From: Candidatus Kuenenbacteria bacterium
GTDB lineage: Bacteria; Patescibacteriota; Patescibacteriia; UBA2196; GWA2-42-15
Reading direction: 5' to 3'
DNA length: 64,000 nucleotides
Assembly (NCBI GenBank): GCA_012797775.1
Contig: JAAZOM010000006.1
Span: forward strand, 12,815 to 76,814
A model generated the notes under the pieces. The model saw only the letters and a program-made list of their open reading frames with translations. It was not told the origin of the DNA and made no database searches. Position 1 is the stretch's first letter; each line of letters begins with the position of its first letter. The position numbers and the translations under genes were made by a program. Shown piece by piece: positions 22,866 through 38,041 of this stretch.

Positions 22866-23009
22866 AAAATTAGTATCAAGATATAAAGTATTTATTGTGT
22901 GTAATTTTATTTCTGTCTTTATTTTACCGCACCCCGTCTGAAAAATCAAAAAAGCTAAAAGGTTATATCTATAAGATTTTTTAATTGTAGCATGGCCCCT
23001 TGACGCGCC

Positions 23010-23038
23010 GGATAAAATATTTTATTCTTATTTCAAAG
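23010..23038 (+). promoter_or_regulatory. Possible sigma70 promoter TTGACG-17-TATTCT.
   Basis: 17-nt spacing. Lies about 100 nt upstream of the 23139 gene, which has the ribosome-binding site AAGGAGAAGG. Confidence 0.3.
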
Positions 23039-23138
23039 TTTTTTAAAAAGAAGAGACTAAACATAAAAAGGAGCAGGAAAATTTGTTGTTTTCAATTCAC
23101 GAGAAATTAAACCAGCCAAATGACAAGGAGAAGGTCTC

Positions 23139-23711: not shown

Positions 23712-23730
23712 TAAGTAATTATCCCAAACG

Positions 23731-23760
23731 AAAAACTCCACCCCTAGGGGCGGAGTTTTA
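23731..23760. terminator. Bidirectional terminator between convergent genes.
   Basis: aaaaactccacccc-ta-ggggcggagtttta. Confidence 0.6.
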
Positions 23761-23761
23761 T

Positions 23762-24691
23762 TTATATATTTTTTACAAACAGCTCGGCCACCGTCAGCAC
23801 TTCAAATTTTTTATCCTTCTTAAAATCCTTGGTCGAGACAATGGAATTTGTGGTAAATATTTTTTTAATATTTTTCTCGCGCCGCAGATTGGCTACCACT
23901 GGTCCAGTGGCTACCAAGTGTGTCAAAACTACATAAATATCTTTTGCTCCTTTGGCCTTCAGGGTTTTGGCCGCCTGGATCAGCGTCCCTCCGGTCTGGC
24001 TCAAGTCATCCACCATCACCACTGTTTTATTTTTCACCTCTCCTCGAAATTTGGTCACCTTCGCCTCATCCACTCGCGGCCGGATTTTTTCTATGGCGGC
24101 CAGATTTTTTATCCCTAATTCATCCGCAAAATTTTTACTGCGCTCGTCAGCGCCCAGATCCGGCGCTAAAACCACCACATCTTTCAGTTTTAATTTTTTG
24201 ATCTTTTCTATAAAAAGTCCCCGCGCTTTTAATTCGGTTATTTTCACTCGGAAATATTTGGCCACTTGGCGGCTGTGCAGATCTAGGGCCACGATTTCAT
24301 CTACTCCTGCATCTTCAATAATTTTTGCCATGAGCTTTGCACTCATCGCATCCCCAGAATATTTTATCCTGTCCTGCTTGCCATAACCAAAGTAGGGGAT
24401 AAGAGCCACTATTTTTTTCGCCCCGTTTTCCTTTAGCGTGTTGATGAGAATTATCAATTCCAACATATTTTCCGCTGGTGAAAAAGTCGAGCCCAAGACA
24501 TAAACTTTTTTGCCGCGGACATTTTCGTTTATATGTACCAAAATTTCCCCGTCTTTATAGTGGGATATCAGGCACCTGCCTTTTTTGATTTTTTTTGTCC
24601 GCCGGTTGGCGGATTGTAATATCTCTCCAACCAATTCTTCATTGCTATGGGTGGAGAAAAGAAAGTTAGACATTCTATTTGAGTTTAGCAC
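23762..24691 (-). CDS. prs: Ribose-phosphate pyrophosphokinase (PRPP synthetase). Copy 2, AT-rich.
   Basis: KDGEILVHINENVRGKKVYVLGSTFSPAENMLELIILINTLKENGAKKIVALIPYFGYGKQDR and VVLAPDLGA blocks. Confidence 0.8.
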   Translation of the reverse strand: MLNSNRMSNFLFSTHSNEELVGEILQSANRRTKKIKKGRCLISHYKDGEILVHINENVRGKKVYVLGSTFSPAENMLELIILINTLKENGAKKIVALIPYFGYGKQDRIKYSGDAMSAKLMAKIIEDAGVDEIVALDLHSRQVAKYFRVKITELKARGLFIEKIKKLKLKDVVVLAPDLGADERSKNFADELGIKNLAAIEKIRPRVDEAKVTKFRGEVKNKTVVMVDDLSQTGGTLIQAAKTLKAKGAKDIYVVLTHLVATGPVVANLRREKNIKKIFTTNSIVSTKDFKKDKKFEVLTVAELFVKNI

Positions 24692-26432
24692 TCCCTGGGA
24701 TCAGCGGATCATAGCCATGCTCTACTTCATCGCCATCTTTATAGCCATCACCATCAGTATCAGCTTTTGATGGATCAGTCTCCCAAATAAATATTTCTTC
24801 TTCATCAGTGATACCATCATTGTCTGTATCTAGATCGGTGCCCATTTCCAAGCCCATTCCATAGTCTTCCCCATTGTTCATCGAGCTTATGCCGTTGGGC
24901 GTGGCCACATTTTCTCCGGCCTTCAGATTGCCGCTGTCACCCAGCAACTGGAAGACCAAAGTATAATCATTTGGTTTTATGCTGGTATACAAATAGCCAC
25001 CATCTATTATTTTGTCTCCGCCCGGTACTTCACTCATATAGACTGTTGAGCCGGCACACTCTTCTATACTAGCCCTAAATCCCTTGGAACACAAAACTTT
25101 CATATTGCCGACACCCGTAGCCGCCGGTATCTCGTTTTTTGGATAGCCATTATTATCGACGAAATAAAGCTCTAGCGCCGTTTGTATCTGCTTTATTTCG
25201 CTCACCGTTTTGGCGTCACTATTTTTTGTCTGCGCTTTGTCCAACGCCCCAAACATACCTCCGCCAAAAGCCTCACTTAATAATTTTTCTAATTCCACTG
25301 GGTCTTTTGGTGACTCTATCTCCATTATCTGGTTAAAATTATCAAATGTTATGGTCATCGCCCCTCCCAAAGTCTGGTTGCCGTCTTTGTCTTTGCCGAT
25401 ATTATCAAAAGGGATTTCTATTTTTCTTATAAAATATTCTTTTTTATCTATCCAGATATCTAGGCTGAAATTTTTAACAAAGCGGTCAAAATTCTGCCAG
25501 TCTTCTTCTTTCATCTCGGCCATGTTTTTTTCTATCTCGGCTTTATTTTTAGAAACAGTTTTTATCTTTTCTATCATATCCAAAATACCCTGTTTATCCA
25601 GACCCAACTGATAGTGGTATGTTTTATTTTCTCCCAATGTTTCCACGCCGTAGTCATTTTTTAATATTATTATCTTGTCCGCATCTTGCTCTAGGATTTC
25701 CCCAATTTTCTTTGTATCCTCATCCTCTTGGCCGGCAAATTTATCCAAGACCGTCGTATTAATACTATATTTCACCCATTTATCTTTTATACTGCTAGTG
25801 TCAATAAACATAGCCAGCATAATTGGCAGTTGGTTTATTTTGAAATAAAGATTTTTCCCCAGAGTTACTACCTCGCCGGCTATATTATTAGTTGTACCGC
25901 CAATATCCAAACCAATATCTATTTTAAATTTTGAACGCAGATTATTTTCGTCGGTATTATCAGTGTATCCTTCTATTTCTGCGTACATCTTTTGTTTTTC
26001 CGTTCCAAGCAGCCCCCCAATTAAATTTAGCGTTGGGGTCGAAGTGGCTTGCTCCGCAGCTTGTTTTTCCTGAAATTCCAATTTCAAATCAAGCTTAAAA
26101 CTGGAAGCCTTTATTTGATTGGTGGCTTGGACGGATTTTTTTAGTACCTTGTCGGGTGTATTGGCGATATATTTGCTATAGCCCCAATATCCACCAAGTG
26201 CTACTCCAGCAAAAATTAAAACTCCAGCTACAATAGCCAGTATTTTTTTTATACCACCACTTGTTTGTGGCATCTCTGGATTCAAAAATTGAGAAGCATC
26301 CACGCTGGGTGGGTTATTCGGTACTGCGACGTTAGGGGTTGTCTCGTAAAGTGGGGTATGACAACTTTGGCAAACGTGGCTTTCCGGGCTATTTTCCAGC
26401 CCGCATTTTTGACAGCGCATATTGTTTTGCAT
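24675..26432 (-). CDS. Hypothetical membrane-anchored protein with an N-terminal zinc ribbon and a C-terminal Asp-rich calcium-binding-like repeat.
   Basis: CQKCGLEN...CQSCHT zinc ribbon, then a TM helix and a large extracytoplasmic region. C-terminal DTDNDGITDEEE...DTDGDGYKDGDE repeats resemble TSP3 or calcium-binding motifs. Confidence 0.5.
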   Translation of the reverse strand: MQNNMRCQKCGLENSPESHVCQSCHTPLYETTPNVAVPNNPPSVDASQFLNPEMPQTSGGIKKILAIVAGVLIFAGVALGGYWGYSKYIANTPDKVLKKSVQATNQIKASSFKLDLKLEFQEKQAAEQATSTPTLNLIGGLLGTEKQKMYAEIEGYTDNTDENNLRSKFKIDIGLDIGGTTNNIAGEVVTLGKNLYFKINQLPIMLAMFIDTSSIKDKWVKYSINTTVLDKFAGQEDEDTKKIGEILEQDADKIIILKNDYGVETLGENKTYHYQLGLDKQGILDMIEKIKTVSKNKAEIEKNMAEMKEEDWQNFDRFVKNFSLDIWIDKKEYFIRKIEIPFDNIGKDKDGNQTLGGAMTITFDNFNQIMEIESPKDPVELEKLLSEAFGGGMFGALDKAQTKNSDAKTVSEIKQIQTALELYFVDNNGYPKNEIPAATGVGNMKVLCSKGFRASIEECAGSTVYMSEVPGGDKIIDGGYLYTSIKPNDYTLVFQLLGDSGNLKAGENVATPNGISSMNNGEDYGMGLEMGTDLDTDNDGITDEEEIFIWETDPSKADTDGDGYKDGDEVEHGYDPLIPGSAKLK

Positions 26433-26440
26433 AATTTATT

Positions 26441-27709
26441 TTACTTTTTTAATTTCCAATATTCCAAGGCCCGCTTTAATTCCAGACGAGTTTCAGCATA
26501 AATTTTGGCTGGGATTTTTTTGACCACTGCTTCTACTGATTGTCGACAAGCTCTAGCTCCGGCGATTGAGCCATCCGGGTGGCCATGTAGTCCGCCCCCG
26601 AAATTAATCACCAGATCAGCCCCGAGTATTTTGACCAATTTTTCCACCAGTCCCGGATGCAATCCGCCCGAAGCAATCGGCAAAACCGGCTTGATCTTTT
26701 CCCAATTGGTTATTTCCTTATTCACTCCAAACCAATCTTCCTCCATTTCCAGATTTATTTCCGTCACTTCCTCGGCCGTGCCTTCCATTTTCCCGACCAC
26801 TGTACCCGTGTGCAGCTGATCAATGCCTGTCAATCTGGCCAGTTTGGCCAAAAGCAGCATGGTCATGCCGTGGCGTGAATTTTTGGTAAACATCGAATGC
26901 CCAGCTCGGTGGCCATGCAAAATCAAGCCCAGATTTTGTTCTCTCAAAAATTGGATATTATCCAACCCAGCCACCACGAGATCAATCATTGCTACCTTGC
27001 CACCGTATTTTTTGACTAGTTTAGCCCGTTTGAGCATCACATCAGCTGGTCCAGTCACATTAAAAACATAAACTTTTTTCTCGCCTGTCTCTTGCTCCAC
27101 TTGTTTTTTGAGTTTCATTACTTCTTTCACCCGTTCTTCAAATTTATTAAAAACCATATCTGTCAAATTCTCATCATCCTTGACTAGATCCACACCGTTT
27201 TTCCAGATTTGATAAGCGAGTCTAGCCTGCTCTTTGGCCGAGAGTCCCACCTTGGGTTTGATGATTGAGCCGATAATCGGCCGCTTGTAAATTTTCAGAT
27301 ATCTTCTCACTCCCTCGATACCAAAGGCCGGTCCCCTGAATGAATCCAGATATTTTTTGGGGAACTGAATATCCAAGAGGCGCAGATTGGCTATCACTTT
27401 CATACTAAAAACATTGCCAGCCAAAGCAGAGAGCAATTGCGTGATATTGCCGAGCTCAAACAATGCCAGTGGGTAGGCAATGTGCACTGTTTTTTTCTTG
27501 TTATCCAGTTTGAAAATCTTTGGCCCCAGCTTTTTTAGGGTTGCCTCTTTGAGCGTGCCGAGTTTTGTCCAGGTGCCGATGGATGATTCAGCGGCGATAT
27601 GCGCGGCCGCCTCGGCCAAGGGTAGTTTGCTTTCTAGATAATAGCTTACCACCAATTCTTCTTTGTAATTTGGCCGGTAGCCCAGCCGGAGATAAGGAGA
27701 TTTACTCAT
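26441..27709 (-). CDS. rbcL: RuBisCO large subunit, form II/III-like.
   Basis: GxxVKPKVGLSAKE catalytic-lysine block, KDDENL block and HxHRAGH block (LHGHRAGH). Start set at MSKSPYLRLGY (27709). The upstream part of the track ORF merely translates the GTAGG array. Confidence 0.85.
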   Translation of the reverse strand: MSKSPYLRLGYRPNYKEELVVSYYLESKLPLAEAAAHIAAESSIGTWTKLGTLKEATLKKLGPKIFKLDNKKKTVHIAYPLALFELGNITQLLSALAGNVFSMKVIANLRLLDIQFPKKYLDSFRGPAFGIEGVRRYLKIYKRPIIGSIIKPKVGLSAKEQARLAYQIWKNGVDLVKDDENLTDMVFNKFEERVKEVMKLKKQVEQETGEKKVYVFNVTGPADVMLKRAKLVKKYGGKVAMIDLVVAGLDNIQFLREQNLGLILHGHRAGHSMFTKNSRHGMTMLLLAKLARLTGIDQLHTGTVVGKMEGTAEEVTEINLEMEEDWFGVNKEITNWEKIKPVLPIASGGLHPGLVEKLVKILGADLVINFGGGLHGHPDGSIAGARACRQSVEAVVKKIPAKIYAETRLELKRALEYWKLKK

Positions 27710-27715
27710 AGGGTT

Positions 27716-27808
27716 GTAGGTTAGTAGGTATGTAGGGAGGTAGGTTAGTAGGATGTAGGTCAATAGTTAGCTTTTTCCTACGACGCTACTTTCCTACCAA
27801 CCTACTAC
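27716..27808. repeat. Inverted pair of 8-bp-phased arrays: GTAGG six times, then CCTAC four times.
   Basis: GTAGG starts at 27716, 27724, 27732, 27740, 27748 and 27755. CTAC starts at 27778, 27786, 27794 and 27802. The pair lies between rbcL and the four-helix-bundle gene. Confidence 0.65.
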
Positions 27809-28173
27809 TCTCTGTTATTAATCATTTTATTTAATATTTTCATTACTTCATTTAATATATTATCTGCTTTTATAAAGCTACTTTCTTTTGCTAGTTTTAA
27901 TCTTTTCGCTATTTCAATTTGTGTTTCCAGTTCCGCGCCAGAGCCGAGGGCGATAATTAAGAAATGCCGAAAATCTGTGACACTACCACGCCTTCTTCCC
28001 TCGGCGATATTGGATGGTATAGAAACAACGGTTTTCTTTGTGTGTGTTGTTAAACCATATAATTCTGATGGTGGGTATTCTCGAGTCAACTCATAAACTG
28101 CAATAACAAGTTCCATTGCTTTCTGCCAGACAATTAGATCTCTATAATCTCCCCATTTATAATTCCCTTCCAT
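27805..28173 (-). CDS. Four-helix-bundle protein of the 23S rRNA intervening-sequence protein family.
   Basis: About 120 aa, with ...ELTREYPPSELYGLTTHTKKTVVSIPSNIAEG...FRHFLIIALGSGAELETQIEIAKRL, typical of that family. Flanked on both sides by CCTAC arrays. Confidence 0.65.
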   Translation of the reverse strand: MEGNYKWGDYRDLIVWQKAMELVIAVYELTREYPPSELYGLTTHTKKTVVSIPSNIAEGRRRGSVTDFRHFLIIALGSGAELETQIEIAKRLKLAKESSFIKADNILNEVMKILNKMINNRE

Positions 28174-28193
28174 AGTATTTAATAATTAATTTC

Positions 28194-28229
28194 CTACTTC
28201 CCTACCCACCTACACCCCTACTTCCCTAG
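28194..28229. repeat. Five CTAC(N4) units with an exact 8-bp phase.
   Basis: CTAC or CTAG starts at 28194, 28202, 28210, 28218 and 28226. Confidence 0.65.
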
Positions 28230-29159
28230 TATCCACGGATAATATTTCTTCACATATTTATCTACCTCATTCGGTTTGATCACCCCAAATTCGGTGATAT
28301 AGCCGGTGATCAGCTGCGCTGGTATTTTGTCAAAAGCAAAATTGATAATCTTTAGTTGTGCTGGGCTGTTCTTCCAAATTTCGGTTTTGGCGCGCAATTC
28401 TATCCCCATTTTTTTATTGGTTTTTTTCATGAGTGTGCCAGCCAGATAGACCGGGATCTTGGAAGTGTAGGCCGCGAGCGCAATGCCAAAACTACCCACT
28501 TTATTCAAAGCGGAATTGTCCGCCAAGATCACGTCAAAACCGATTATCACTTTGTCTATTTTTACTTTGTCGCCGGAAAAATTGGAAATCAGAAATTCGG
28601 CGGCTGAATCCACCACCATGGTATTATCAATTTTTAGTCTAGCCAGATCTTCAGAGGTTTTTCGTCCCTGCATGAGTGGCCGAGTTTCATCATTATAAAC
28701 GTGTATTTTCTTTTTCTGTTCTTTGGCCGCGCCCAAAATATTGATGACTGTTTGCGCATGGCAGTGCGTGAAAATATTTTCTTTGTTTTTTATCGTTCTA
28801 CTACCATAGAGAGAAATCCGCTGGCCATTTTTATGGAGTAATTCTGAAAAATCGGTTGCCTGTTTTTTGGCCAGTTTTTTCAATTCTACCACTTCACTAG
28901 CCCTGCTTTTGATCCCATGTTTTTCTGCCAGACGCAGATGCAAGTATTTAAAAGCATTAATCGTTAGTGGTTCATCTGGTCGGGCTTTGGCCAAGAGCTC
29001 GCCAGCGCGCTTGGCTTCATTCAGGAAAGTCACCGGATTTCTCATCTTCAGGATTGATAAATAGGCGACCCATGCTTCAATGCTCGCCCGGCAGATATTG
29101 CTGGCGCCCTGTATTTTTATAGAACGGATATCTTTTATTGTTTGGTTTAGACTAGCCAT
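28218..29159 (-). CDS. Ribose-1,5-bisphosphate isomerase (eIF-2B alpha/beta/delta-like, e2b2).
   Basis: IQGASNICRASIEAW, THCHAQTV and VIIGFDVILADNSALNKVGSFGIALAAYTSKIPVYLAG match the eIF2B-like MtnA/R15P isomerase fold. Sits next to RuBisCO. Confidence 0.75.
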   Translation of the reverse strand: MASLNQTIKDIRSIKIQGASNICRASIEAWVAYLSILKMRNPVTFLNEAKRAGELLAKARPDEPLTINAFKYLHLRLAEKHGIKSRASEVVELKKLAKKQATDFSELLHKNGQRISLYGSRTIKNKENIFTHCHAQTVINILGAAKEQKKKIHVYNDETRPLMQGRKTSEDLARLKIDNTMVVDSAAEFLISNFSGDKVKIDKVIIGFDVILADNSALNKVGSFGIALAAYTSKIPVYLAGTLMKKTNKKMGIELRAKTEIWKNSPAQLKIINFAFDKIPAQLITGYITEFGVIKPNEVDKYVKKYYPWILGK

Positions 29160-29268
29160 AGTTCAAAATTTAATGATGCTTTAATTTTACCAATTTTCGG
29201 GCGCCAAAGCAAAATTTGATTTTTTTGGCTGTTATTATATACTTGCTACATCAACTAATTTAATTTTT

Positions 29269-29760
29269 ATGGACAAAAGAATTCGACCTGACCACCATTT
29301 CCTTCGTCCAGAAGGCGACAAGAGCGCAGACAAAAAAGAAAGAAGTGAGCTCGAACAAGCGCTGGCCGATATTGCTCTCGAATTTATTACCAAAACAGAA
29401 CCGCACCCTGATAATGAAAAAATAGAAACACCGCTTTACTCGCCTTTAATTTTAAGAACACCAAGCAAGGCCAGACTTCGATCCGGGCTAAGGGAGAAGA
29501 AACTCTCTGAAGCTATAAAAATAAGAATATCAGATCAGCGATTAACAATTGATCTTCGTGAGGCCATTGAAAATCTTAACGGAGAGACCGAAGCGATGGA
29601 TGCGCAGGCTTTTAAAAATACCCTAGTCCAGGATGCTAGACCAGATCTCTTCAATGAGGCGACAGCCTATCTGCAAAATGACCTTACCGATTTTATTAGG
29701 GAAAAGTATCCCCAATTTACAGATATCAGAATTCTTCTTACCTACGAACCCACTCCATAA
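29269..29760 (+). CDS. Hypothetical protein, 163 aa.
   Basis: Charged, helical sequence with no recognisable family. A terminator follows. Confidence 0.45.
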   Translation: MDKRIRPDHHFLRPEGDKSADKKERSELEQALADIALEFITKTEPHPDNEKIETPLYSPLILRTPSKARLRSGLREKKLSEAIKIRISDQRLTIDLREAIENLNGETEAMDAQAFKNTLVQDARPDLFNEATAYLQNDLTDFIREKYPQFTDIRILLTYEPTP

Positions 29761-29761
29761 T

Positions 29762-29788
29762 AAAAAGCCCCTTCATGGGGCTTTTTTT
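29762..29788. terminator. Intrinsic terminator.
   Basis: aaaagcccc-ttcat-ggggcttttttt. Confidence 0.7.
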
Positions 29789-30045
29789 AGTAGAAGATAA
29801 ATTGCGACCGCTTGAGCTAAAATTATGAGATACATTATCAGATAAAAGTTAGCCTTGCGTCTTTTGTGTCTGGCTATCTCCATAGCCATTATCCCACCGA
29901 GTGACCCGCCGAGCAAAGACAACAGCCAGAGCACTTTTTCTGGTATGCGCCAGCCACCATATATTGAGCGCTGTTTGTCAAAAACAAAAATAATGAACGT
30001 TAAAACATTAATAGTGATGAGGTAGTAGAATAAATATTGAGTCAT
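29773..30045 (-). CDS. DUF1294 small membrane protein.
   Basis: FIIFVFDKQRSIYGGWRIPEKVLWLLSLLGGSLGGIMAMEIARHKRRKANFYL matches the DUF1294 pattern. Confidence 0.6.
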   Translation of the reverse strand: MTQYLFYYLITINVLTFIIFVFDKQRSIYGGWRIPEKVLWLLSLLGGSLGGIMAMEIARHKRRKANFYLIMYLIILAQAVAIYLLLKKAP

Positions 30046-30060
30046 TCTATCTTTAGTAGC

Positions 30061-30081
30061 GAGTAACGAGTGACGAGTAAT
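30061..30081. repeat. Three GAGTRAY heptamers with a 7-bp phase.
   Basis: gagtaac, gagtgac and gagtaat. This is the inverted partner of the array at 30490-30515. Confidence 0.55.
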
Positions 30082-30096
30082 GTGCTAAAGGGCGAC

Positions 30097-30468
30097 CTAA
30101 GTGTTTATTGATCTGATTAATCCATTTATTATTTGTCTAGTCTGATTACCCAGTTCGCCCAGTCTTTTGCATGTTTCCAAATTAATATACTCCAAGTCTT
30201 TTGATAATATCAAAAAATTTTGTACTTCGGCCACCGAGCCGCGCGCTTGATAATAAAACTTAGTCTTATCTTTAAAATGATATCTAGCAAAACCCTCAGC
30301 GATATTAGCACCAACAGAACTAGCTGCCCTTCTTAATTGGTTGGTGATTCCATATGTTTCGTCAGTCGGGAAAAGTTTTGTTATTTTATAAATTTCCAAT
30401 GCCAAAATGTGGGAGTATTTCCAGGCCTCTAAATCATAAAAATTATTTATTATATTTTTCTTTGACAT
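30097..30468 (-). CDS. Four-helix-bundle protein of the 23S rRNA intervening-sequence protein family. Paralog 2.
   Basis: About 123 aa, with ...ITNQLRRAASSVGANIAEGFARYHFKDKTKFYYQARGSVAEVQN. Flanked by inverted heptamer arrays. Confidence 0.65.
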   Translation of the reverse strand: MSKKNIINNFYDLEAWKYSHILALEIYKITKLFPTDETYGITNQLRRAASSVGANIAEGFARYHFKDKTKFYYQARGSVAEVQNFLILSKDLEYINLETCKRLGELGNQTRQIINGLIRSINT

Positions 30469-30489
30469 ATTAATTATTCATTTCCCTTA

Positions 30490-30515
30490 TTACCTATTAC
30501 ACATTACTCATTACT
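30490..30515. repeat. Four ATTACNN heptamers with a 7-bp phase (reverse complement GTAAT).
   Basis: TTAC starts at 30490, 30497, 30504 and 30511. Confidence 0.55.
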
Positions 30516-31902
30516 AAAGTACCACTCGTTCTCCCTTTTCTGGCATCACAATCTGCCCAATCTGATTTTTATCTAGCTTCTCCGCCAAGACACTCATCGC
30601 TCCTGCTTCACCATGGACTAGAAATAATTTTTTCAGTTTGCCAACGCCCCCAATAAATTTAACCAGATCATACTGATCCGCGTGGGCGGACAGAGAATTT
30701 AAAACCACTATTTTCGCCTTGACTGCCAGATTTTCATTCAAGATATTTACCTTTTCTGCTCCCTCGAGTAGTTTTCTACCCAAGGTATTCTCGGCCATGA
30801 AACCAACTATCACTACGGTATTTCTCGGGTCACTGATGCTATTTTTCAGATGGTGCCGGATGCGTCCGAACTCACACATACCCGAAGCTGAGATAATTAT
30901 GCATGGCTGTTTTGTATTATTCAATTTTTTTGATTCTTCTGGCGTTTCTACAAAACGCAGTGTGGTAAAAATAAAGGGATCTTTGCCTTGCTCCAAAAAA
31001 GTTTTCTGTGTTTCTTCGTCCAGTAGATCAGGATAATCAGAAAAAGCCTCACTCACTCTTTCTGTTAGTGGACTGTCCAAATAGACAAATAAAGGCGGTA
31101 TGGCTTTTTGATTGATCAATTCATGGATAATATACAAGAGTTCCTGCGCGCGCTCTAAGGCAAAAGAGGGGATGATCACCTTGCCGCCTCGGGCATAGGT
31201 CTCATTGATTGCTTTGGCCAGGTCGAGATATGAAGTGGACAGGCTGTCATGGACCCGGTCGCCATAAGTACTTTCCGAGATCAGATAATCAACCGCCCGG
31301 ATTTGCTCCGGGTCTTTGAGAATCGGTAAAAATTTGCGACCCAAATCTCCGGTGAATCCGAGGCGCACTATTTGTCCATTTTCCGTTAATTCCAAAGTCA
31401 ATAAAGCTGAGCCAAGTACATGCCCAGCATCGCGGAAATAAGCTTTGACCCCCGGCAATGGTTCAAATTCTTCATGATAATTCACGCCCACAAATTGCTT
31501 CATGGCTGGAGCCACATCATCAGGTGTATAGATTGGTTCTAGCGGTGTTGTCTCTGGTAATTGTTTGCGATTCAGATATTCCACATCATAAACCTGCACT
31601 CGGGCACTATCCTCGAGCATCAATTCCGTGATCTGCTCAGTAGCTTTGGTGCAATAAATTTTGCCCTTGAAACCCTGCTTGACCAGATTGGGAATATTGC
31701 CCGAGTGGTCAATATGGGCATGGCTCAAGATCATGGCATCAATACTCTTGGGGTCAAAAGGAAATTCTCTGTTTATACTTTCCATATCCCGCCTTTGTCC
31801 TTGCCAAAAGCCGCACTCCAAAAGGAGTTTTTTATTATTTATAGTGATCACATATTGTGAGCCAGTGACAGTTTTGCAGGCCCCGAAAAATTCTATTTTC
31901 AT
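30514..31902 (-). CDS. Metallo-beta-lactamase / beta-CASP family ribonuclease (RNase J / CPSF-like).
   Basis: HAHIDHSG motif within an MBL fold, plus a beta-CASP region and a C-terminal HGE block. Confidence 0.7.
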   Translation of the reverse strand: MKIEFFGACKTVTGSQYVITINNKKLLLECGFWQGQRRDMESINREFPFDPKSIDAMILSHAHIDHSGNIPNLVKQGFKGKIYCTKATEQITELMLEDSARVQVYDVEYLNRKQLPETTPLEPIYTPDDVAPAMKQFVGVNYHEEFEPLPGVKAYFRDAGHVLGSALLTLELTENGQIVRLGFTGDLGRKFLPILKDPEQIRAVDYLISESTYGDRVHDSLSTSYLDLAKAINETYARGGKVIIPSFALERAQELLYIIHELINQKAIPPLFVYLDSPLTERVSEAFSDYPDLLDEETQKTFLEQGKDPFIFTTLRFVETPEESKKLNNTKQPCIIISASGMCEFGRIRHHLKNSISDPRNTVVIVGFMAENTLGRKLLEGAEKVNILNENLAVKAKIVVLNSLSAHADQYDLVKFIGGVGKLKKLFLVHGEAGAMSVLAEKLDKNQIGQIVMPEKGERVVL

Positions 31903-31905
31903 AAA

Positions 31906-31945
31906 TAAGCGAGTTAAGCAGTAAGTGAGGTAAGCAAGATAAGCA
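31906..31945. repeat. TAAGYRAG-type array with an 8-9 bp phase.
   Basis: TAAG starts at 31906, 31915, 31922, 31931 and 31940, immediately upstream of the beta-CASP gene start. A similar array lies at 18512-18545, upstream of the 18478-18506 promoter. Confidence 0.5.
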
Positions 31946-32109
31946 ACTTAAAAGAAACTTTTTGCCCATCACCTCTTTGTAATTATAATTTTATCCCATA
32001 TCACCGCCCTTTGACAAATTTTCAAAAATAGTTTATTTTAAAAAGCACTATCTCAGACACAAAAGAACGGTAAACAAAAAAGAAAAAACGGAACAGAAAG
32101 GAGCAGAAA

Positions 32110-32271
32110 TTGGAGGAGTGTATTTTTTGTAAAAAAAGAAGGCTCATTGGCAATCCGCACTTCATCCACTGGGAACATCTGCCCAGCCCGTACTCAATTC
32201 GGGGCCAGGAACTGCGGACGGTCAATGTCCAGATGGTAGTCTGTGAGGAGTGCAAGGGCAAACAATCGTGA
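32110..32271 (+). CDS. Small C4 zinc-ribbon protein, paralog a (53 aa, TTG start).
   Basis: AAGGAG ribosome-binding site 6 nt before the TTG. CIFC...HWEHLPSP...CEEC. The gene is GC-rich. Confidence 0.4.
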   Translation: MEECIFCKKRRLIGNPHFIHWEHLPSPYSIRGQELRTVNVQMVVCEECKGKQS

Positions 32272-32284
32272 GGAGGTGTGTGGT

Positions 32285-32521
32285 ATGATAAGGAACCGAA
32301 AAGCAGCAGCAGTAGGTAAATGCCGGGTTTGCGGAAGGCATCGCTGGGAGGGTGCTTGGCATAGTCGTGGCTCTGAACCCCAGTCTCTTCGGGCTATTTT
32401 AAACAATCCCTTGGGACACAGGGTGAAGCCGACCATTTGCAGTAACTGTCAGACTGCCAAAGATCAGCTCACTACCCGGTCAGTACCAGCCAATCTTCGC
32501 CGAGTTAGGAGGCAAGAGTGA
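32285..32521 (+). CDS. Small C4 zinc-ribbon protein, paralog b (78 aa).
   Basis: GAGGAGG ribosome-binding site before ATG 32285. CRVC...W..AWHSRGSEP...CSNC. Confidence 0.45.
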   Translation: MIRNRKAAAVGKCRVCGRHRWEGAWHSRGSEPQSLRAILNNPLGHRVKPTICSNCQTAKDQLTTRSVPANLRRVRRQE

Positions 32522-32679
32522 TAAGATACCCCCAATGTCCCATCTGTAACTTAGTGGAGGTAGAGAATGGCCGGTGGCAGCCACTCTATACTTTCTCTAA
32601 GGAGGAACAGCGAAAAATAGTTCCTCATCTCCACCGGGTGGACGGCTGCCATTGCCAAAGGGGAGGAGAACGCGGATAA
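32518..32679 (+). CDS. Small zinc-ribbon protein, paralog c (53 aa, GTG start overlapping the upstream stop).
   Basis: GTGA start-stop overlap with paralog b. CPIC...RWQPLYT...CHC. Confidence 0.35.
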   Translation: MIRYPQCPICNLVEVENGRWQPLYTFSKEEQRKIVPHLHRVDGCHCQRGGERG

Positions 32680-32738
32680 ATAAACTTCCGCGGGCCCTTC
32701 CTAGCCATACGAGGCGCAACTGTTTTAAAGGTTGTGCC

Positions 32739-32768
32739 TTATTTTTTACCAAAACAAAATCCACTCGC
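32739..32768 (-). terminator. Intrinsic terminator on the minus strand.
   Basis: ccactc-gccatg-gagtgg hairpin followed on the minus strand by a T-run. Lies downstream of the 32883-33059 gene. Confidence 0.5.
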
Positions 32769-32882
32769 CATGGAGTGGATTAAAATATGATCTTCTATTT
32801 TCAGTTGGCAAACCGCTTTTACCAGCTAAAAATAAAAGGGGGAGAGCAGTAAGCCACCACACCACACCCCCCGATTTTGCTT

Positions 32883-33059
32883 TCAGTCGGCCATAAAGTC
32901 AATGGCCCAAAGAAAGGCTTCGCCCAGTCCCTCCCAGCGCGCCTGCGCCAGAAAGAACAGGGTGACGAGCCCCAGTCCGAAGCCGAACAGCTCAGCCCGG
33001 TGCTCTTTTAGGGTTTCGAGGAGGTCCTCGACCCCATTAAAAATAAAATCAATCAGCAT
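32883..33059 (-). CDS. Small hydrophobic protein, 58 aa.
   Basis: GGAG ribosome-binding site about 7 nt before the ATG. Driven by the consensus promoter at 33117-33145. Sequence MLIDFIFNGVEDLLETLKEHRAELFGFGLGLVTLFFLAQARWEGLGEAFLWAIDFMAD. GC-rich. Confidence 0.45.
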   Translation of the reverse strand: MLIDFIFNGVEDLLETLKEHRAELFGFGLGLVTLFFLAQARWEGLGEAFLWAIDFMAD

Positions 33060-33116
33060 ATTTTTTCTCCTTTCTGCTGATTTTTATTTTTTTGGTTTTT
33101 AATGTTCAATTAATAT

Positions 33117-33145
33117 ATTATAGCATATATTAATACTTTTGTCAA
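33117..33145 (-). promoter_or_regulatory. Consensus sigma70 promoter TTGACA-17-TGCTATAAT on the minus strand.
   Basis: The reverse complement reads TTGACAAAAGTATTAATATATGCTATAAT. It is near-identical to the promoter at 18478-18506. Confidence 0.65.
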
Positions 33146-33203
33146 TAGACAAAAGTAAACAAAAACCGCTTAAAATTTGTCTAAACGGTTTTTATTAAAA
33201 AAA

Positions 33204-33533
33204 TTAAAGTAACTTTTCCAATTCTGCTTTCAGGATTTCTTTGGGTCTAAAACCAACAATTTCATAAATCAGCTTGCCAGCTTTGAAAACCTTGAGGTTG
33301 GGGATACTCATGACTAGATATTTCTCTGATAATTCATAATTATCTTCCTCGTTGGTATCCAGCTTGGTAATTTTTATTTTACCTTCCATTTCTTCAGCTA
33401 GCTGATCAAGAACTGGAGCCATCATCTGGCACGGCCCACACCATGGCGCATAAAAGTCCACCAAGACCGGCAACTCCGATTCTAGGACTTCTTTTTGAAA
33501 ATTATCTTTGGTTAGTTCCATTGCTTTTAACAT
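33204..33533 (-). CDS. trxA: Thioredoxin.
   Basis: WCGPC active site in the FYAPWCGPCQMMAP context. Confidence 0.92.
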   Translation of the reverse strand: MLKAMELTKDNFQKEVLESELPVLVDFYAPWCGPCQMMAPVLDQLAEEMEGKIKITKLDTNEEDNYELSEKYLVMSIPNLKVFKAGKLIYEIVGFRPKEILKAELEKLL

Positions 33534-33673
33534 ATATTTTTTTGATTGATTTATAAGGTGTGTCTATCTTAGCATATAATATTTTTGCGGTAAAGTTTGA
33601 CATATTTTTCTTTATTTAGTAAGTTTAGCTCAAAAGAAAATCACCCACAGAACCATAAAAGGAGGTAGCTGTC

Positions 33674-34420
33674 ATGAGTACGCATATTGGAGCAAAAAAA
33701 GGCCAGATCGCCGACGTAGTCTTATTGCCCGGTGATCCGCTCCGAGCTGCCTGGCTGGCAAAAAAATTCTTAAAGGCCCCAGAGACAGTTCATGATGTCC
33801 GCGGTATGCCCTGCTACACCGGGTTCCGTCATTGTTTCAGGGCCCTCCCCGGTCAACTCGCTTGTACCAAAAAATTGATATCCATCCAGTCCAGCGGCAT
33901 GGGCATGCCATCACTCGGCATTTATGTCGAGGAGCTGGCAAGAGACTTCGGGGTCAAAAAAATTATCCGTCTCGGCACCTGCGGAGCCTTGCAAGAAAAA
34001 ATTAATCTTCGCGATATTATCATCGCGATGGGGGCTTGCTCTGATTCGGCCTCCAATATTCACCGCTTTGGGCCAGCCATGAGTTTCGCTCCTATCGCCG
34101 ATCCGGCTCTTTATCGTGACGCCGTCCTCCAGGCCGAAGACCGGGGATTGCCTTTCCACACTGGCAATGTCTTTGCCACGGATGATTTCTATGATCACAG
34201 TGAGCCGCCGAGGTGGCAAAAGTTTGCTCGATATGGTGCTCTGGCTGTTGAAATGGAAACAGCAAAGCTCTATACCCTGGCCGCCTATTATGGGATACAG
34301 GCGCTGTCGCTACTCGTGGTCAGCGACCACCTGGCTCGCGAGGAAAAGCCCCTGACCTCAGAAGAGCGGGTGACCTGCTGTAGCGACATAGCTATGATCG
34401 CCCTGAGCATTGTTGCCTAG
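33674..34420 (+). CDS. deoD: Purine nucleoside phosphorylase, DeoD type (PNP/UDP family 1).
   Basis: VVLLPGDPLRA, GMGMPS, RLGTCG, GACSDS and EMETAKLY blocks align closely with DeoD. The gene is GC-rich. Confidence 0.8.
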   Translation: MSTHIGAKKGQIADVVLLPGDPLRAAWLAKKFLKAPETVHDVRGMPCYTGFRHCFRALPGQLACTKKLISIQSSGMGMPSLGIYVEELARDFGVKKIIRLGTCGALQEKINLRDIIIAMGACSDSASNIHRFGPAMSFAPIADPALYRDAVLQAEDRGLPFHTGNVFATDDFYDHSEPPRWQKFARYGALAVEMETAKLYTLAAYYGIQALSLLVVSDHLAREEKPLTSEERVTCCSDIAMIALSIVA

Positions 34421-34686
34421 TGGCTATCCGTCTCAAAAACAAAGAGCATTCGATTTTATTGAGTGCTCTTTTTATTATTGTTCAAAACAAAAAATACCCT
34501 CTCGCGAGGATATTTTTTTACGCTGTACAGCCCGCCTGCCGGCGAGGCAGTGATTGAACTGTTAAAAAGATTCACTGGATCTTTTTAACCTTTCTCCTTA
34601 GTTGAGAAGTGCCGGGGGCACTTCCAACGGAGCTGCTCGCCGCTCCCTTTTAAACAAAAAACATTCGCCGCAACGAATGTCTTTTG

Positions 34687-34762
34687 TGGTACGCTGTACA
34701 GGATTCGAACCTGTGACCTTCTCCTTAAAAGGGAGCTGCTCTACCAACTGAGCTAACAGCGC
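34687..34762 (-). tRNA. tRNA-Lys (anticodon TTT).
   Basis: Manual fold: GCGCTGT/ACAGCGT acceptor stem, GCTC-AGTTGGTAGAGC D arm, GCTCC-CTTTTAA-GGAGA anticodon arm, ACAGG-TTCGAAT-CCTGT T arm, encoded CCA. Confidence 0.85.
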
Positions 34763-34896
34763 ATATGGCAAAAACTCAAAATTCAAAAATTAAAAGTCAA
34801 AATTAAGGTTAATTTATTTTATTAGGCGAAGTTGGTCCAACTGCCTGCCCCGCACCTTTATGGCTGCGGGGAGCTAACAGCGCATAAGTTTTGTAA

Positions 34897-34980
34897 TTTA
34901 CCCTGAACGTCAGTGAAGGGTCCCATCTCAATTTGATAAAACGCGAGATTTTTCCCCTGCGTCTGTGGGGTAAGGATAAA
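34897..34980. repeat. Interspersed repeat element, copy B (short form).
   Basis: TTTACCCTGAACG...AGTGAAGGGTCCCA...CCCCTGCGTCTGTGGGGTAAGGATAAA. It abuts a 16-bp copy of the tRNA-Lys 5' end. Confidence 0.5.
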
Positions 34981-35049
34981 CTCAATACAACATATCTAAA
35001 AAAATCTTAACAGAAAATTAAAAATCAATCAAGGCTTTGGCTAATTATT

Positions 35050-35093
35050 TTATTTAAAAAAAGAGGGCGTCAGGAAATTTTTCCTAACGCCCA
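35050..35093 (-). terminator. Intrinsic terminator on the minus strand.
   Basis: gggcgtcagga-aattttt-tcctaacgccc hairpin, downstream of the 35111-35257 ORF. Confidence 0.55.
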
Positions 35094-35110
35094 AAATTGG
35101 GCCACTCAGC

Positions 35111-35257
35111 TTACATAGTCTGGGTTACATTCCCATTATTATCAACCCTGATTATGTTCACTTTATCCCATCTGGAGCAGCTATGGGAGCCGCCCCAGCG
35201 CACCATGTGTGTACAGCGGCACAGATTGCAAGTAACTTGTTTGTATCTTAAACTCAT
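35111..35257 (-). CDS. Small Cys-rich protein, 48 aa.
   Basis: AGGAGG ribosome-binding site about 7 nt before the ATG. MSLRYKQVTCNLCRCTHMVRWGGSHSCSRWDKVNIIRVDNNGNVTQTM. GC-rich. Confidence 0.4.
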   Translation of the reverse strand: MSLRYKQVTCNLCRCTHMVRWGGSHSCSRWDKVNIIRVDNNGNVTQTM

Positions 35258-35400
35258 CCCGCCCTCCTCTGGCTATTTATATTACTATTTTTGCTCTATT
35301 TTTTGTCTTATCAATACAATCTAGACAACCTAACTTTTTTGCATTATTTTGCCAAACAACAAAACCTGCCAGTAGCTTTGCCAGCCGACCTATGTCTTTT

Positions 35401-35688
35401 TTAATAGAAAAGTTTTGCTCCCTTGAGAGCAGAAAACATTATCTCTGTCATTGGCTCAGGGATTTTTATTTCAAAAGACTTACCTCTTCCCCGAGCCAAT
35501 TCCTGGGCATCCGCCAGTCCTCGAGCCTCACTAGGGTCGATAGCCACCAACTTGGTCAGGTCCACTACGATCAGCTCAGCCTTTTGCCGGCGGATGAGGG
35601 CGCCCACCTCCGGTGCTAGGTTGAACAGGTCATTTCCGTTTTGAACCATCAGAGAGAAAACCCTGGCACCCAAATTTTTTACTATCAT
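35401..35688 (-). CDS. STAS-domain protein (anti-sigma-factor-antagonist-like). Paralog 1.
   Basis: ELIVVDLTKLVAIDPSEARGLADAQELARGRG resembles the STAS LDLSxVxFIDSSGLG core. Confidence 0.5.
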   Translation of the reverse strand: MIVKNLGARVFSLMVQNGNDLFNLAPEVGALIRRQKAELIVVDLTKLVAIDPSEARGLADAQELARGRGKSFEIKIPEPMTEIMFSALKGAKLFY

Positions 35689-35702
35689 CTAATGCCTCCA
35701 TT

Positions 35703-35999
35703 TTATAAATCCAGACACCCTCGCAATTGTCTATTATTTTGTAGGCTTGTCACCACTGATTCATGCGCCCGAAAAGTAGAAATTTGGAAAGTGGCATCAG
35801 CCTCTTCTATCCGTTCTTTGGCTGCCATCAAGCAGGCGATGTCTGCTTCAAAAAGCAACTCAGCCTCTGGCAGATCAATAATTATTCTTTGAGAGCCGTC
35901 ATCTATTGCCGCCTCTATAGCCTCAGTCATTCTTTGATAGTCACCGCTCACCTCCAGCATAATCTGGGAGGCATCATCTCCAAAAGGCAGTAATTTCAT
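35703..35999 (-). CDS. STAS-domain protein (anti-sigma-factor-antagonist-like). Paralog 2.
   Basis: QRIIIDLPEAELLFEADIACLMAAKERIEEADATFQIS follows the STAS pattern. Confidence 0.5.
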   Translation of the reverse strand: MKLLPFGDDASQIMLEVSGDYQRMTEAIEAAIDDGSQRIIIDLPEAELLFEADIACLMAAKERIEEADATFQISTFRAHESVVTSLQNNRQLRGCLDL

Positions 36000-36123
36000 A
36001 TTTTATCCTTCCTATATTTATTTTATTTTTCTGGTTTTTTATTTTTATTAAAACTACTCTTTTCCTTCTTTTTTGTCAAATAAAAAAACCGGCGAAGAGA
36101 AACTCTCCGCCGGTTCGATTGTC

Positions 36124-36414
36124 TTAGCTCAACAGGCCGGCCGCATCAAGGGCTTCAAGCATCCCTTCTCCATCGCCGTTGGCCCCGTTGACTCCGCTAA
36201 GATCAAAACGGGCGCCAGCTTTCCTGACAGCATCTCGAGCCGCCAAAAGGGCCCTGATGACTTCATCATCTACCCTCCGGAAGTACCCAATGTCCAGCAA
36301 GACGGTCTTTGTCTTTTTGGTCATCATTCCGGTGACGGCCACCGGCAAGTTGCCGATGTCCTCGCTGTCTATACGAAGACCAAGGTTAATTCTATCTTGA
36401 GAAAATTGTTGCAT
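36124..36414 (-). CDS. STAS-domain protein (anti-sigma-factor-antagonist-like). Paralog 3.
   Basis: TVLLDIGYFRRVDDEVIRALLAARDAVRKAGARFDLSGVNG follows the STAS pattern. Confidence 0.5.
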   Translation of the reverse strand: MQQFSQDRINLGLRIDSEDIGNLPVAVTGMMTKKTKTVLLDIGYFRRVDDEVIRALLAARDAVRKAGARFDLSGVNGANGDGEGMLEALDAAGLLS

Positions 36415-36432
36415 CGTAAATCCTCCTAAATT

Positions 36433-37977
36433 TTATGTTGCGTTTTTTCTTCCAAACAAATATTTTTTGTAATTTTCACTCTGCCTCCAGACTGGTGCCA
36501 AAATTCTTGGATGCACTGCTCTGGGGCCATTTTGGATCGTATCAGCTATTTCCTCCACTGTGTATTGCCCATAGACATAGGCATTTAAAAGCGTTGGCCA
36601 ACTGATTTTCGATCCCCACACCTTACCACTGCCAATGAGTTTTGTCAAGGTAGTTTTCAATTCTTGTGCCTTCTTTTTCTCTATCTCCAAAGGCAATTTC
36701 AACTGCCCATAATTTTTATCTCTTTCTCCGATTTTAAAGCGATAATATTTCAAGGTATTCTTATTGCCAGACTGGTCGAGCATCAGCCCTAGATTATTAA
36801 AAACAACCAAATCACCCCTATTAATTATGGTTATTTTTGGGCTGACTGTTTCTGTCGGTATATTTATCATTCTCTCCTGAAAAAGAAATTTCATATCACC
36901 AAAATAATTATCCGCTAGCAAAAGCTCGGCCATATTGGAAAAAGAAATATCATCATGATAGCGCGGCTCACGCCCACTGACTGTGGCGTGATATTCCAGT
37001 CTGTCTGGATGATCTCGGTCTGAAAAAAATCTGTCGCCCCAAGCATAATTTAAATAAGTAGAAAAATCGGCATAGCCAAAACGATAATTCAAGATTCCCG
37101 CTCCCAGATAAAACTGTGCCCCCAGCCCCACTGGCCGGATTCCAATGCTTGCCTCCACCATCCCATTTTTGAAAGTTATCGCCCGGAGGTTTTCTGCCAT
37201 TTTTTTACTTAAGTTCAAAATCTGCTGATCGCTCGTCAAGTCTCCATAAATCATGAGCGCTGTGGCTGTCACCAGATGATAGTGGGGGTTGAAGGCCATT
37301 GGCTTGCCCTCTTCATACCAGCCACTATTTATGTCCTCTTTTATCACTTTCTCGATTTTGTTTTTTATTAATTTATCAAAATATTGTTTTCTGTCTGCTG
37401 TTAGAAAAGTCTTTGCATAAAAATTATTCACCACGGCCTGCCAGTATACTGCCGACAGCGCCGCCCGGTTGGAAGTATCATCGGCCAAAATTCCCGCTTC
37501 TATTCTTTCATAAACCGTTTGATAAAGTTGACTTTTTTCTTCAGTGGTCAAAATATCTGGCAACTGGTCAGCTAGTCGTACCAGAGCAAAGGCGGCAAAG
37601 GCCTCAGAAAAAGACTGGCTTTGAACCAAGCGGTTGGCCAGAGCCACCCGGCAGCCAAGCATGCTTTGGCGCAATTTTTCTCTGGCTATATTATCACCAG
37701 CCAAAGCGCGGTATTTATAATAAAGTCCCAGGCTGATTATTTCTCTGGGTTCGCCCGGCGTGGTAAATTCTGGCGCGCCATAGTCTGGGGCCTGGTAAAC
37801 AAAACCAAAATTGTCCAAGTGTCGGCTATAGCGATTATAAAAATAGGACAGATATTTTTCCAAAGACAAATCATTTTCTGCCGCCTTGGTTTTTGGTGTG
37901 CTAATAAAAAAATTACCAGCGACGATTAGGGCTAGTAAGGTTATAATAGAGGTAGTGTGCAAATACTTGGATAACAT
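36433..37977 (-). CDS. Hypothetical secreted protein, 514 aa.
   Basis: N-terminal signal/TM segment. No recognisable motifs. Confidence 0.5.
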   Translation of the reverse strand: MLSKYLHTTSIITLLALIVAGNFFISTPKTKAAENDLSLEKYLSYFYNRYSRHLDNFGFVYQAPDYGAPEFTTPGEPREIISLGLYYKYRALAGDNIAREKLRQSMLGCRVALANRLVQSQSFSEAFAAFALVRLADQLPDILTTEEKSQLYQTVYERIEAGILADDTSNRAALSAVYWQAVVNNFYAKTFLTADRKQYFDKLIKNKIEKVIKEDINSGWYEEGKPMAFNPHYHLVTATALMIYGDLTSDQQILNLSKKMAENLRAITFKNGMVEASIGIRPVGLGAQFYLGAGILNYRFGYADFSTYLNYAWGDRFFSDRDHPDRLEYHATVSGREPRYHDDISFSNMAELLLADNYFGDMKFLFQERMINIPTETVSPKITIINRGDLVVFNNLGLMLDQSGNKNTLKYYRFKIGERDKNYGQLKLPLEIEKKKAQELKTTLTKLIGSGKVWGSKISWPTLLNAYVYGQYTVEEIADTIQNGPRAVHPRILAPVWRQSENYKKYLFGRKNAT

Positions 37978-38041
37978 AATTTTATTCTAACAAATGATGA
38001 GAAATAAAAAAAGCCCCAGGCGTAGCGCCAAGGGCTTATCG

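Follow-up and report, generated by a model that had tools for sequence, protein, structure and literature searches.

The subject of this report is a small genetic element in a 64,000-nt stretch of DNA from a Candidatus Kuenenbacteria bacterium (contig JAAZOM010000006.1, positions 12,815 to 76,814 of the forward strand; the whole stretch is called the window here, and positions are counted from its first letter). The element lies on the minus strand and carries an open reading frame (ORF) for a 123-aa four-helix-bundle protein, p1 (30097-30468), assigned to PF05635 / TIGR02436 (23S rRNA intervening sequence protein, “S23p”); a second family member, p2, occupies 27805-28173 on the same strand. 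Upstream of p1 lies the gene of a beta-CASP / metallo-beta-lactamase RNA-metabolising hydrolase (30514-31902, minus strand) and downstream that of a DUF1294 membrane protein (29773-30045, minus strand), both co-oriented with p1. On the plus strand, the heptamers GAGTAAC, GAGTGAC, and GAGTAAT fill 30061-30081, with a degenerate unit, TAGTAGC, just before them at 30054-30060, while ATTACCT, ATTACAC, ATTACTC, and ATTACTA fill 30489-30516; Tandem Repeats Finder reports period 7 at 30055-30080 (3.7 copies) and at 30496-30515 (2.9 copies). Read in the sense of the gene (minus strand throughout), the element opens with a 5′ arm (30489-30519; CTT TAG TAATG AGTAATG TGTAATA GGTAAT) of four NNGTAAT heptamers, which holds the last sense codon of the beta-CASP gene and its stop codon (30514-30516, in the last ATTACTA unit). 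A 20-nt leader, AAGGGAAATGAATAATTAAT (30469-30488), leads from this arm to the ATG of p1, and a 15-nt spacer (30082-30096) leads from the stop codon to a 3′ arm of RTYACNN heptamers (30051-30081; ATTACTC GTCACTC GTTACTC GCTACTA AAG), which stops 5 nt short of the DUF1294 ATG (30043-30045). The cassette (30051-30519, about 470 bp) takes up the whole spacer between the beta-CASP and DUF1294 genes. The original prediction, made from the sequence of the window, had placed the ORF and both arrays correctly, as confirmed by ORF translation and Tandem Repeats Finder, but had described the arrays as directly abutting the ORF; they lie 20 nt from its ATG and 15 nt from its stop, and it is the neighbouring genes that they abut instead.

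Both arrays are periodic far beyond expectation, with period-7 scores of 18/21 upstream and 17/21 downstream, where shuffled sequences average 9-10 and none of 2000 dinucleotide shuffles reaches either value. That they form an inverted pair, as proposed earlier, was borne out by an inverted-repeat search that pairs 30051-30081 with 30489-30519 over 31 nt at 74% complementarity; the inverted-arm score of 15, compared with 8.4 ± 1.4 for shuffles, is matched by 7 of 2000 shuffles and by 4 of 2000 random window pairs of equal spacing. Chance or slippage as the origin of the arrays was ruled out by these shuffle tests together with recurrence in 74 of 85 relatives (described below). Joined by a tetraloop, the p1 arms form 27 bp at -25.4 kcal/mol in the sense orientation (z = -7.8) and at -20.9 kcal/mol in the antisense orientation. 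The GC content of the cassette is 0.32-0.37, compared with 0.40-0.47 in its neighbours. An Rfam scan of the window returned two tRNAs only, the p1 element lying between coding genes and not in an rRNA helix. A promoter-like site was found at 32017-31988, upstream of the beta-CASP gene, and the stretch from the beta-CASP stop codon to the p1 ATG gave no prediction of a sigma-70-like promoter; because p1 is co-oriented with the beta-CASP gene and no promoter-like site precedes it, p1 is probably transcribed by read-through.

The p1 protein scores 115.4 bits against PF05635 (cut-off 33.8) and 112.2 bits against TIGR02436 (cut-off 24), and an identical protein is on record from Candidatus Kuenenbacteria, a lineage of the candidate phyla radiation (CPR; Patescibacteria). 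Its closest solved relative by sequence is XCC0516 of Xanthomonas (PDB 2GSC; phmmer E = 1.4e-15). The AlphaFold2 monomer model (pLDDT 92.3) has four helices and is matched by Foldseek to 2GSC at TM 0.85-0.93, to BT_0352 (2RLD) at TM 0.70-0.86, and more distantly to Avd (PDB 4DWL and 8UB7) at TM 0.7-0.8. The protein is basic (pI 9.4; family median 9.3), and divergence at codon positions 1, 2, and 3 amounts to 0.39, 0.29, and 0.60, from which it follows that the protein is under purifying selection. The p2 protein is 28% identical to p1, and no family member besides these two was found in the 64-kb window. The idea of a HEPN RNase was dropped, as a survey of the HEPN superfamily (PMC3710099) makes no mention of the PF05635 family. 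With Avd (4DWL, 8UB7), p1 has in common the four-helix-bundle fold, a basic surface, and membership of related families; a basic protein of this kind, akin to Avd, is likely to bind the cassette RNA or the arms with their arrays and to act in the maintenance or spread of the element. The same likeness, together with a PF22296 match of p2 (E = 0.0013), might be taken to mean that p1 is a stray or decaying Avd gene of a diversity-generating retroelement. However, the PF22296 score lies under its cut-off, no RVT family occurs among the called genes within 4 kb, no template/variable repeat pair exists within 8 kb, and flanking arrays are not a feature of diversity-generating retroelements; a search for direct repeats in 22000-38000 gave none longer than 37 nt, those present being AT-rich (65-81%) chance matches. 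Unlike Avd systems, p1 has neither a reverse transcriptase nor a template/variable repeat pair near it, on which grounds a diversity-generating retroelement was excluded, and descent of p1 from an Avd gene of one must be considered very improbable.

The arrangement at p1 recurs throughout its relatives, which comprise 80 genome loci with 47-75% identical proteins, mostly from CPR metagenome bins, and two contexts from the protein database. At nearly all of these loci the ATG is immediately preceded by (NNGTAAY)n and the stop codon immediately followed by (RTTACNN)n. Of the 85 flanks on each side, 79 upstream and 71 downstream have 7 as their best period, and a clear inverted arm pair is present in 74 of the 85 elements, the arms having a median length of 32.5 nt, 83% Watson-Crick pairing, and a median distance of about 6 nt from both ATG and stop. 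Minimum-energy folds of whole elements contain at least 15 flank-to-flank pairs in 76 of 85 cases, compared with 30 of 85 for controls in which the 3′ flank was reversed. Further, the 5′ arm fits its own 3′ arm better (20.9) than the 3′ arms of other GTAAY-type elements (16.8), and in 17 of 37 elements its own 3′ arm is among the best-scoring tenth. Protein clustering gave the GTAAY unit as common to proteins at least about 55% identical to p1; distant subclades possess units of their own (AAGATTT, GTCACTN, AGACATT, TTTAAAG, GTAAATA), each time reverse-complemented on the other side. In control spacers of the same loci, strong 7-periodic arrays occur in 4 of 32, and some of these four proved on inspection to be ORF-less versions of the element. 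The proposal that such flanking is a recurring architecture can thus be extended from the two members in the window, both of which have arrays, to these relatives and, for the most part, to other phyla; other family members of the genome without flanking periodic repeats, which would have told against it, were not found in the window. Among 20 atypical CPR loci none lies inside rRNA, with only tRNAs nearby. Two further loci deserve mention for their layout. At L040 (1885-2260) about 330 nt separate the stop codon of the four-helix gene from the RTTAC 3′ array, so that the arms seem to enclose a second ORF. The L066 contig has, 430 nt upstream of its GTAAC-type four-helix cassette, an ORF-less, near-perfect hairpin of GTAAC / GTTAC units (965-1062; -42.5 kcal/mol, z = -6.5).

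The cassettes are moved and exchanged. The p1 slot is filled differently in metagenome contigs with a beta-CASP protein 85-88% identical to that of the window: L100 has an ORF-less hairpin with ATGATTT / AAGATTT arms, L102 has inverted TTTCYAA heptamer arrays in its sequence (the fold is not significant, z = -0.3), and L101 (3870-4356) and L103 (1250-1850) have GTAAC heptamers split by a GC-rich hairpin and followed by an ORF for a 116-aa, endonuclease-like DUF559 protein (PF04480, E = 1.9e-35) with GC-rich inverted repeats of its own. In L101, the last codons of the host gene are themselves made of heptamers. Strain L001, 95% identical across the p1 region, is without the p2 gene, has kept its 5′ GTAGG array, and carries in the p2 slot the same mini-element as L100. 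This ORF-less mini-element of about 110 bp occupies three sites in two strains (L100 3886-4026, L100 5905-5975, and L001 6296-6405), with ATGATTT / AAGATTT heptamer arms that resemble those of TTAAGAT-type four-helix cassettes (L085, L088, L091) and a conserved loop beginning GGCGCTGACTCGGC; the two L100 copies have an identical 45-nt loop. Strains L001 and L002 (6286-8372 in each, corresponding to about 26100-28180 of the window) share 93-95% identity as far as the IF-2B-like gene reaches and only 76% beyond it, in the RuBisCO gene, and as this drop falls just past the p2 slot, a recombination breakpoint coincides with the slot. On a Saccharibacteria contig (L043/L044), two cassettes 4.6 kb apart with unrelated flanks are 100% identical through the 5′ array, the ORF, and the first units of the 3′ array, and differ in unit number; a Moraniibacteriota contig has 96.6% identical cassette copies at different sites. 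Arrays and ORF are copied to new sites as one unit, and the arrays gain and lose units; the ORF-less hairpins with the same arms are likely derivatives of the cassettes, which is shown in part. The earlier suggestion of a mobile or recombination-prone cassette is upheld by the changing slot occupants, by the identical copies at unrelated sites of one contig, and by the ORF-less derivatives at several sites, and the presence/absence polymorphism that it called for exists in both slots, p2 being absent from L001 and p1 being replaced in L100-L103. No truly empty slot was found among related strains, each slot holding some hairpin or cassette, for which reason target-site duplications and exact termini could not be defined. 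A dense grouping was seen in Moraniibacteriota (L080 and L083; JAXHLG010000002.1, 941100-947576), where three GTCACTN-array cassettes alternate with host genes within 6.5 kb.

Against this background it may be asked whether the element is mobile at all, or whether heptamer hairpins are intercistronic punctuation of the host, concerned with mRNA processing or stability, and p1 a domesticated RNA-binding regulator encoded inside one of them. ORF-less heptamer hairpins do occur in other spacers of the same operon in every strain examined, the protein is under purifying selection, and orthologous cassettes persist at their sites across species with ORF identity at least equal to flank identity, which fits a domesticated gene as well as a parasite. 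However, host punctuation does not account for identical cassettes at unrelated sites, for slot content that differs between close strains, for the GC content of the cassette (0.32-0.37) below that of its neighbours (0.40-0.47), or for the presence of the same package in rRNA helices, CRISPR-cas operons, and virus-classified contigs, and we consider it unlikely.

The position of the cassettes relative to host genes is constrained. In 73 of 76 cases the gene upstream of the cassette has the same orientation, its stop codon and the cassette ATG being a median of 40 nt apart; for the downstream gene the count is 52 of 69 and the median gap 48 nt. From the short gaps and the co-oriented neighbours it follows that the cassettes lie within operons and leave no space for a promoter. 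Only 2 of 83 ORFs (L020-L099) have a Shine-Dalgarno-like tetramer before them, and in 55 of 81 elements all three reading frames are closed by the 5′ array, compared with 28% of shuffles and with 20 of 81 for the 3′ arrays. Translation of the cassette ORF may depend on coupling to the upstream gene.

Neither the protein nor its arrays are confined to CPR. Among plasmids, tblastn detected members in cyanobacteria, Riemerella, Azospirillum, and Gemmatirosa. Inverted arrays surround genes nested in co-oriented operons in Calothrix (GGGTGTA / TACACCC), Nostoc and Trichormus (AGTCAGG), Leptolyngbya (short-period arrays), and the Bacteroidota member Riemerella (AAGGTTT), and in Picosynechococcus (L128) the gene lies between cas10 and cmr3 with inverted short-period arrays. 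Assembly artefacts of metagenome bins were ruled out as a source of the architecture, as it is the same on these finished plasmids of isolates. Virus-classified contigs had flanking short-period arrays in about 10 of 15 cases, as judged by eye, mostly inverted. In Azospirillum lipoferum, the PF05635 ORF lies inside a 23S rRNA gene (Rfam large-subunit rRNA model, 2155 bits), where it replaces the hairpin loop at model positions 1205-1227, which we take to be helix 45; the two flanks of the ORF read CAGAGGA CGGATGA CAGAGGA and TCCGTCC TCTGTCT TCTGTCA. With inverted 7-nt arrays around this 23S copy, a classical intervening sequence (IVS) is seen to have the same heptamer-armed architecture. The IVS of Coxiella is 428-444 nt long with a 28-bp terminal stem, has two or three GACAGAT heptamers before the S23p ATG in strain-dependent copy number, and is cut by RNase III on the 5′ side at the start of the first repeat, the S23p protein being regarded as expendable by the authors (PMC4990558). 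The combination of ORF, inverted arms, and tandem heptamers at p1 is the architecture of the ORF-bearing 23S rRNA IVS, here found outside rRNA, a correspondence that the original prediction had missed. A literature search of sources other than subscription journals returned no paper tying PF05635 genes outside rRNA to flanking heptamer arrays.

Taken together, these data favour, with moderate confidence, a model in which p1 is an IVS-type mobile selfish cassette in an operon spacer, with processing of its arms at the RNA level. This model proposes that the promoter-less cassette is read through from the beta-CASP gene, upon which the arrays would pair in the read-through transcript to give a stem of about 27-31 bp with the ORF looped out. 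RNase III may then cut the stem, as mapped for the homologous Coxiella IVS, and this cut would release the cassette RNA and uncouple it from the host cistrons; processing of the p1 arms by RNase III is probable by analogy with that IVS. Such release would make insertion tolerable in rRNA helices and operon spacers alike. Several observations, in addition to the persistence of orthologous cassettes noted above, weigh against the model. Folded as a whole, the p1 element has no unusual stability (z = -0.98). Mismatches in the arms of the family are G-U in 130 and A-C in 113 instances, without an RNA-specific signature, and arm hairpins have median energies of -27.6 kcal/mol in sense and -27.1 kcal/mol in antisense (p = 0.73); with both measures neutral, selection on the arms specific to RNA was rejected. 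Complementarity at the two variable heptamer positions is partial, the longest helix without interruption measures 11 bp in the median and attains 20 bp in only 7 of 81 elements, and the conserved GTAAY core goes beyond what pairing of a bare stem needs. Arrays are direct, not inverted, in L119 (a Pseudanabaena galeata plasmid), L129 (Gemmatirosa), and L131 (a virus-classified contig); in L119 (1090-1680), about 14 AAAGCTA units stand upstream and about 10 AAAGCCA units downstream of a gene located between cas6 and cas4. Finally, a tblastn search of the window with an E. coli Rnc query, which must be regarded as uninformative, found no RNase III gene. Inspection of six orthologous pairs gave no clear compensatory changes.

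The lack of wobble or strand bias, the partial complementarity, the conserved core, and the direct arrays favour either a rival to this model or an addition to it, in which the arrays act on DNA. They would then be stacked, oriented sites for the four-helix protein or for a host factor and mark the ends of the element, with RNA pairing as a by-product; as part of the same proposal, the ends may serve transposition, gene conversion, or site-specific recombination, in the manner of transposon subterminal arrays or of the REP sequences around a RAYT gene. Across 55-77% identical proteins the GTAAY / RTTAC core is kept while the other two heptamer positions drift, and the core switches with the protein clade. 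In addition, duplicated copies are identical exactly from array to array, unit number differs between copies both here and in Coxiella (PMC4990558), ORF-bearing cassettes have ORF-less hairpins of the same unit in their vicinity, one mini-element being present at three sites, and the direct-array variants are unable to form a stem at all. The basic character of the protein (median pI 9.3) and its relation to the nucleic-acid-binding Avd speak for such a role as well. However, no nuclease or recombinase motif is known in the protein, its surroundings encode no transposase, integrase, or reverse transcriptase, and a target-site duplication is not definable. Further, co-orientation with the abutting upstream gene in 73 of 76 cases is predicted by a constraint on RNA or expression and is not required of DNA ends, and the Coxiella stem is a proven RNase III substrate (PMC4990558). 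A DNA-level function of the arrays is viewed as possible, if rather unlikely, and processing of the arms in RNA is retained as the preferred account of p1.

The window contains further arrays of this kind, all on the minus strand. The p2 cassette comprises a 5′ array of about four 8-nt GTAGG units in sense (28193-28228), which overlaps the stop codon of the IF-2B-like gene, the 122-aa PF05635 ORF (27805-28173), a proximal GTAGG-type array directly 3′ of the ORF (27774-27806, sense), and a CCTAC array of about six units in sense (27712-27760), which ends at the RuBisCO ATG (27709-27711). The CCTAC array is complementary to both GTAGG arrays and is shared between them in the fold of the cassette (z = -4.3). 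The two cassette slots sit in what is presumably a CPR nucleotide-salvage set (26441-29159), with a RuBisCO large-chain homologue and an IF-2B-family (ribose-1,5-bisphosphate isomerase-like) gene. When ORFs are called mechanically, RuBisCO is extended as far as a TTG at 27763 and the repeat array is translated with it (MTYILLTYLPTYLLTYNP); the ATG at 27709-27711 agrees with the start in strain L001. As a matter of annotation in general, arrays of this kind overlap the stop and start regions of host genes and come to be translated as false N-terminal extensions. Two ORF-less hairpins are present, one in an operon spacer at 15969-16095 with heptamer arms GAATTAT / ATAATTC (RNA fold z = -4.2) and one at 41971-42058 with arms CAAAATC / GATTTTG (RNA fold z = -3.3). 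A solo array of p2-type GTAGG units (21318-21376), with neither partner array nor ORF, follows the stop of the minus-strand gene 21366-22949, and another, of 8-9-nt units with a GCTTA core (31905-31946), lies directly upstream of the beta-CASP ATG, no partner array having been found for it. Between the beta-CASP promoter region and the thioredoxin gene, a segment of about 1 kb (32150-33050) has a GC content of 0.50-0.54, compared with a window mean of 0.42, and contains no ORF of at least 100 aa and no Rfam match; the stretch matching it does not align between strains L001 and L002.

The roughly 100 related loci indicate that ORF, inverted arms, and tandem heptamers form one conserved package that is not confined to rRNA, that colonises ordinary operon spacers in many CPR lineages and in other phyla, and that is copied as a unit and accompanied by ORF-less relatives. 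The model of its function is testable, in that it predicts cutting by RNase III at the arms and binding of the protein to the heptamer arrays. The package may also point to an origin for heptamer microsatellites called unexplained in several papers. Cyanobacterial short tandemly repeated repetitive (STRR) sequences are one known kind of intergenic heptamer array. Others are the intergenic TAACTGA arrays of unexplained role in Beggiatoaceae, cyanobacteria, and Bacteroidetes (PMC4679880) and the GGGAATC / GGGGAYT repeats of Xanthomonas and Nostoc, of which Xanthomonas has 70-75 inverted pairs (PMC4692102). Like the arrays of the p1 family, published heptamer arrays lie in the spacers of operons with 2-6 or more 7-nt units in tandem, often end just before a start codon or overlap an upstream stop, hold stop codons in all frames, and vary in unit number between strains; unlike them, the arrays described here form an inverted pair around a four-helix gene, and the terms “four helix,” “S23,” and “intervening” are absent from PMC4679880 and PMC4692102. 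It is conceivable, as a tentative and in our view doubtful extension, that PF05635 genes with their arrays are the autonomous members of a widespread, unrecognised class of mobile element, that ORF-less heptamer hairpins are its non-autonomous derivatives, and that the protein recognises the heptamers and might act in Avd-like fashion with a reverse transcriptase in trans. If true, one class would explain the 23S IVS and the four-helix genes wedged into operons, those of CRISPR-cas included, as well as the STRR, the TAACTGA repeats of Beggiatoaceae, and the GGGAATC repeats of Xanthomonas.

Other known systems resemble p1 in part. In REPIN-RAYT systems, or REPtrons, inverted copies of a short repeat stand on either side of a small gene, the same repeat being found in intergenic, ORF-less hairpins as well, and the Correia (nemis) hairpins of Neisseria are co-transcribed and cut by RNase III. 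The p1-type gene is likewise flanked by inverted units that are also found as ORF-less hairpins. However, PF05635 is the only family detected in its protein, which is not an HUH/Y1 (IS200/IS605-type) transposase, for which reason p1 is not a REPtron; in addition, its arms consist of heptamers in tandem, not of a single palindrome, and several cassette copies are present per genome. With integron cassettes p1 has in common a promoter-less single ORF, an imperfect inverted-repeat site, and exchange at a fixed slot, but no integrase is found among the neighbours, repeats stand on both sides in place of a single attC, and the slots are dispersed in ordinary operons. The comparison is closest for the ORF-bearing 23S IVS, elements that were already known, together with their “S23p” ORFs, in the early 1990s. 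Coxiella burnetii, Leptospira and Xanthomonas (by the literature), and Azospirillum lipoferum (from the present analysis) have a homologous PF05635 ORF in such elements. The Coxiella element and p1 agree in size (428-444 nt and about 470 nt, respectively) and in terminal inverted repeats of about 28-31 nt around the ORF, and p1 has the further IVS features of tandem heptamers upstream of the ATG with strain-variable copy number, co-orientation with the host transcript, a GC content below that of the host, and sporadic occurrence among strains. The kind of element is thus already known, and what is new here is its occurrence outside rRNA and the family-wide extent of the heptamer-array architecture. 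Two differences set p1 apart: the p1-family protein appears constrained, whereas S23p of Coxiella is considered expendable (PMC4990558), and, unlike a 23S IVS, which occupies a loop of rRNA helix 9, 25, or 45, p1 lies in the spacer between protein-coding genes of an operon, where excision would cut an mRNA instead of fragmenting an rRNA.

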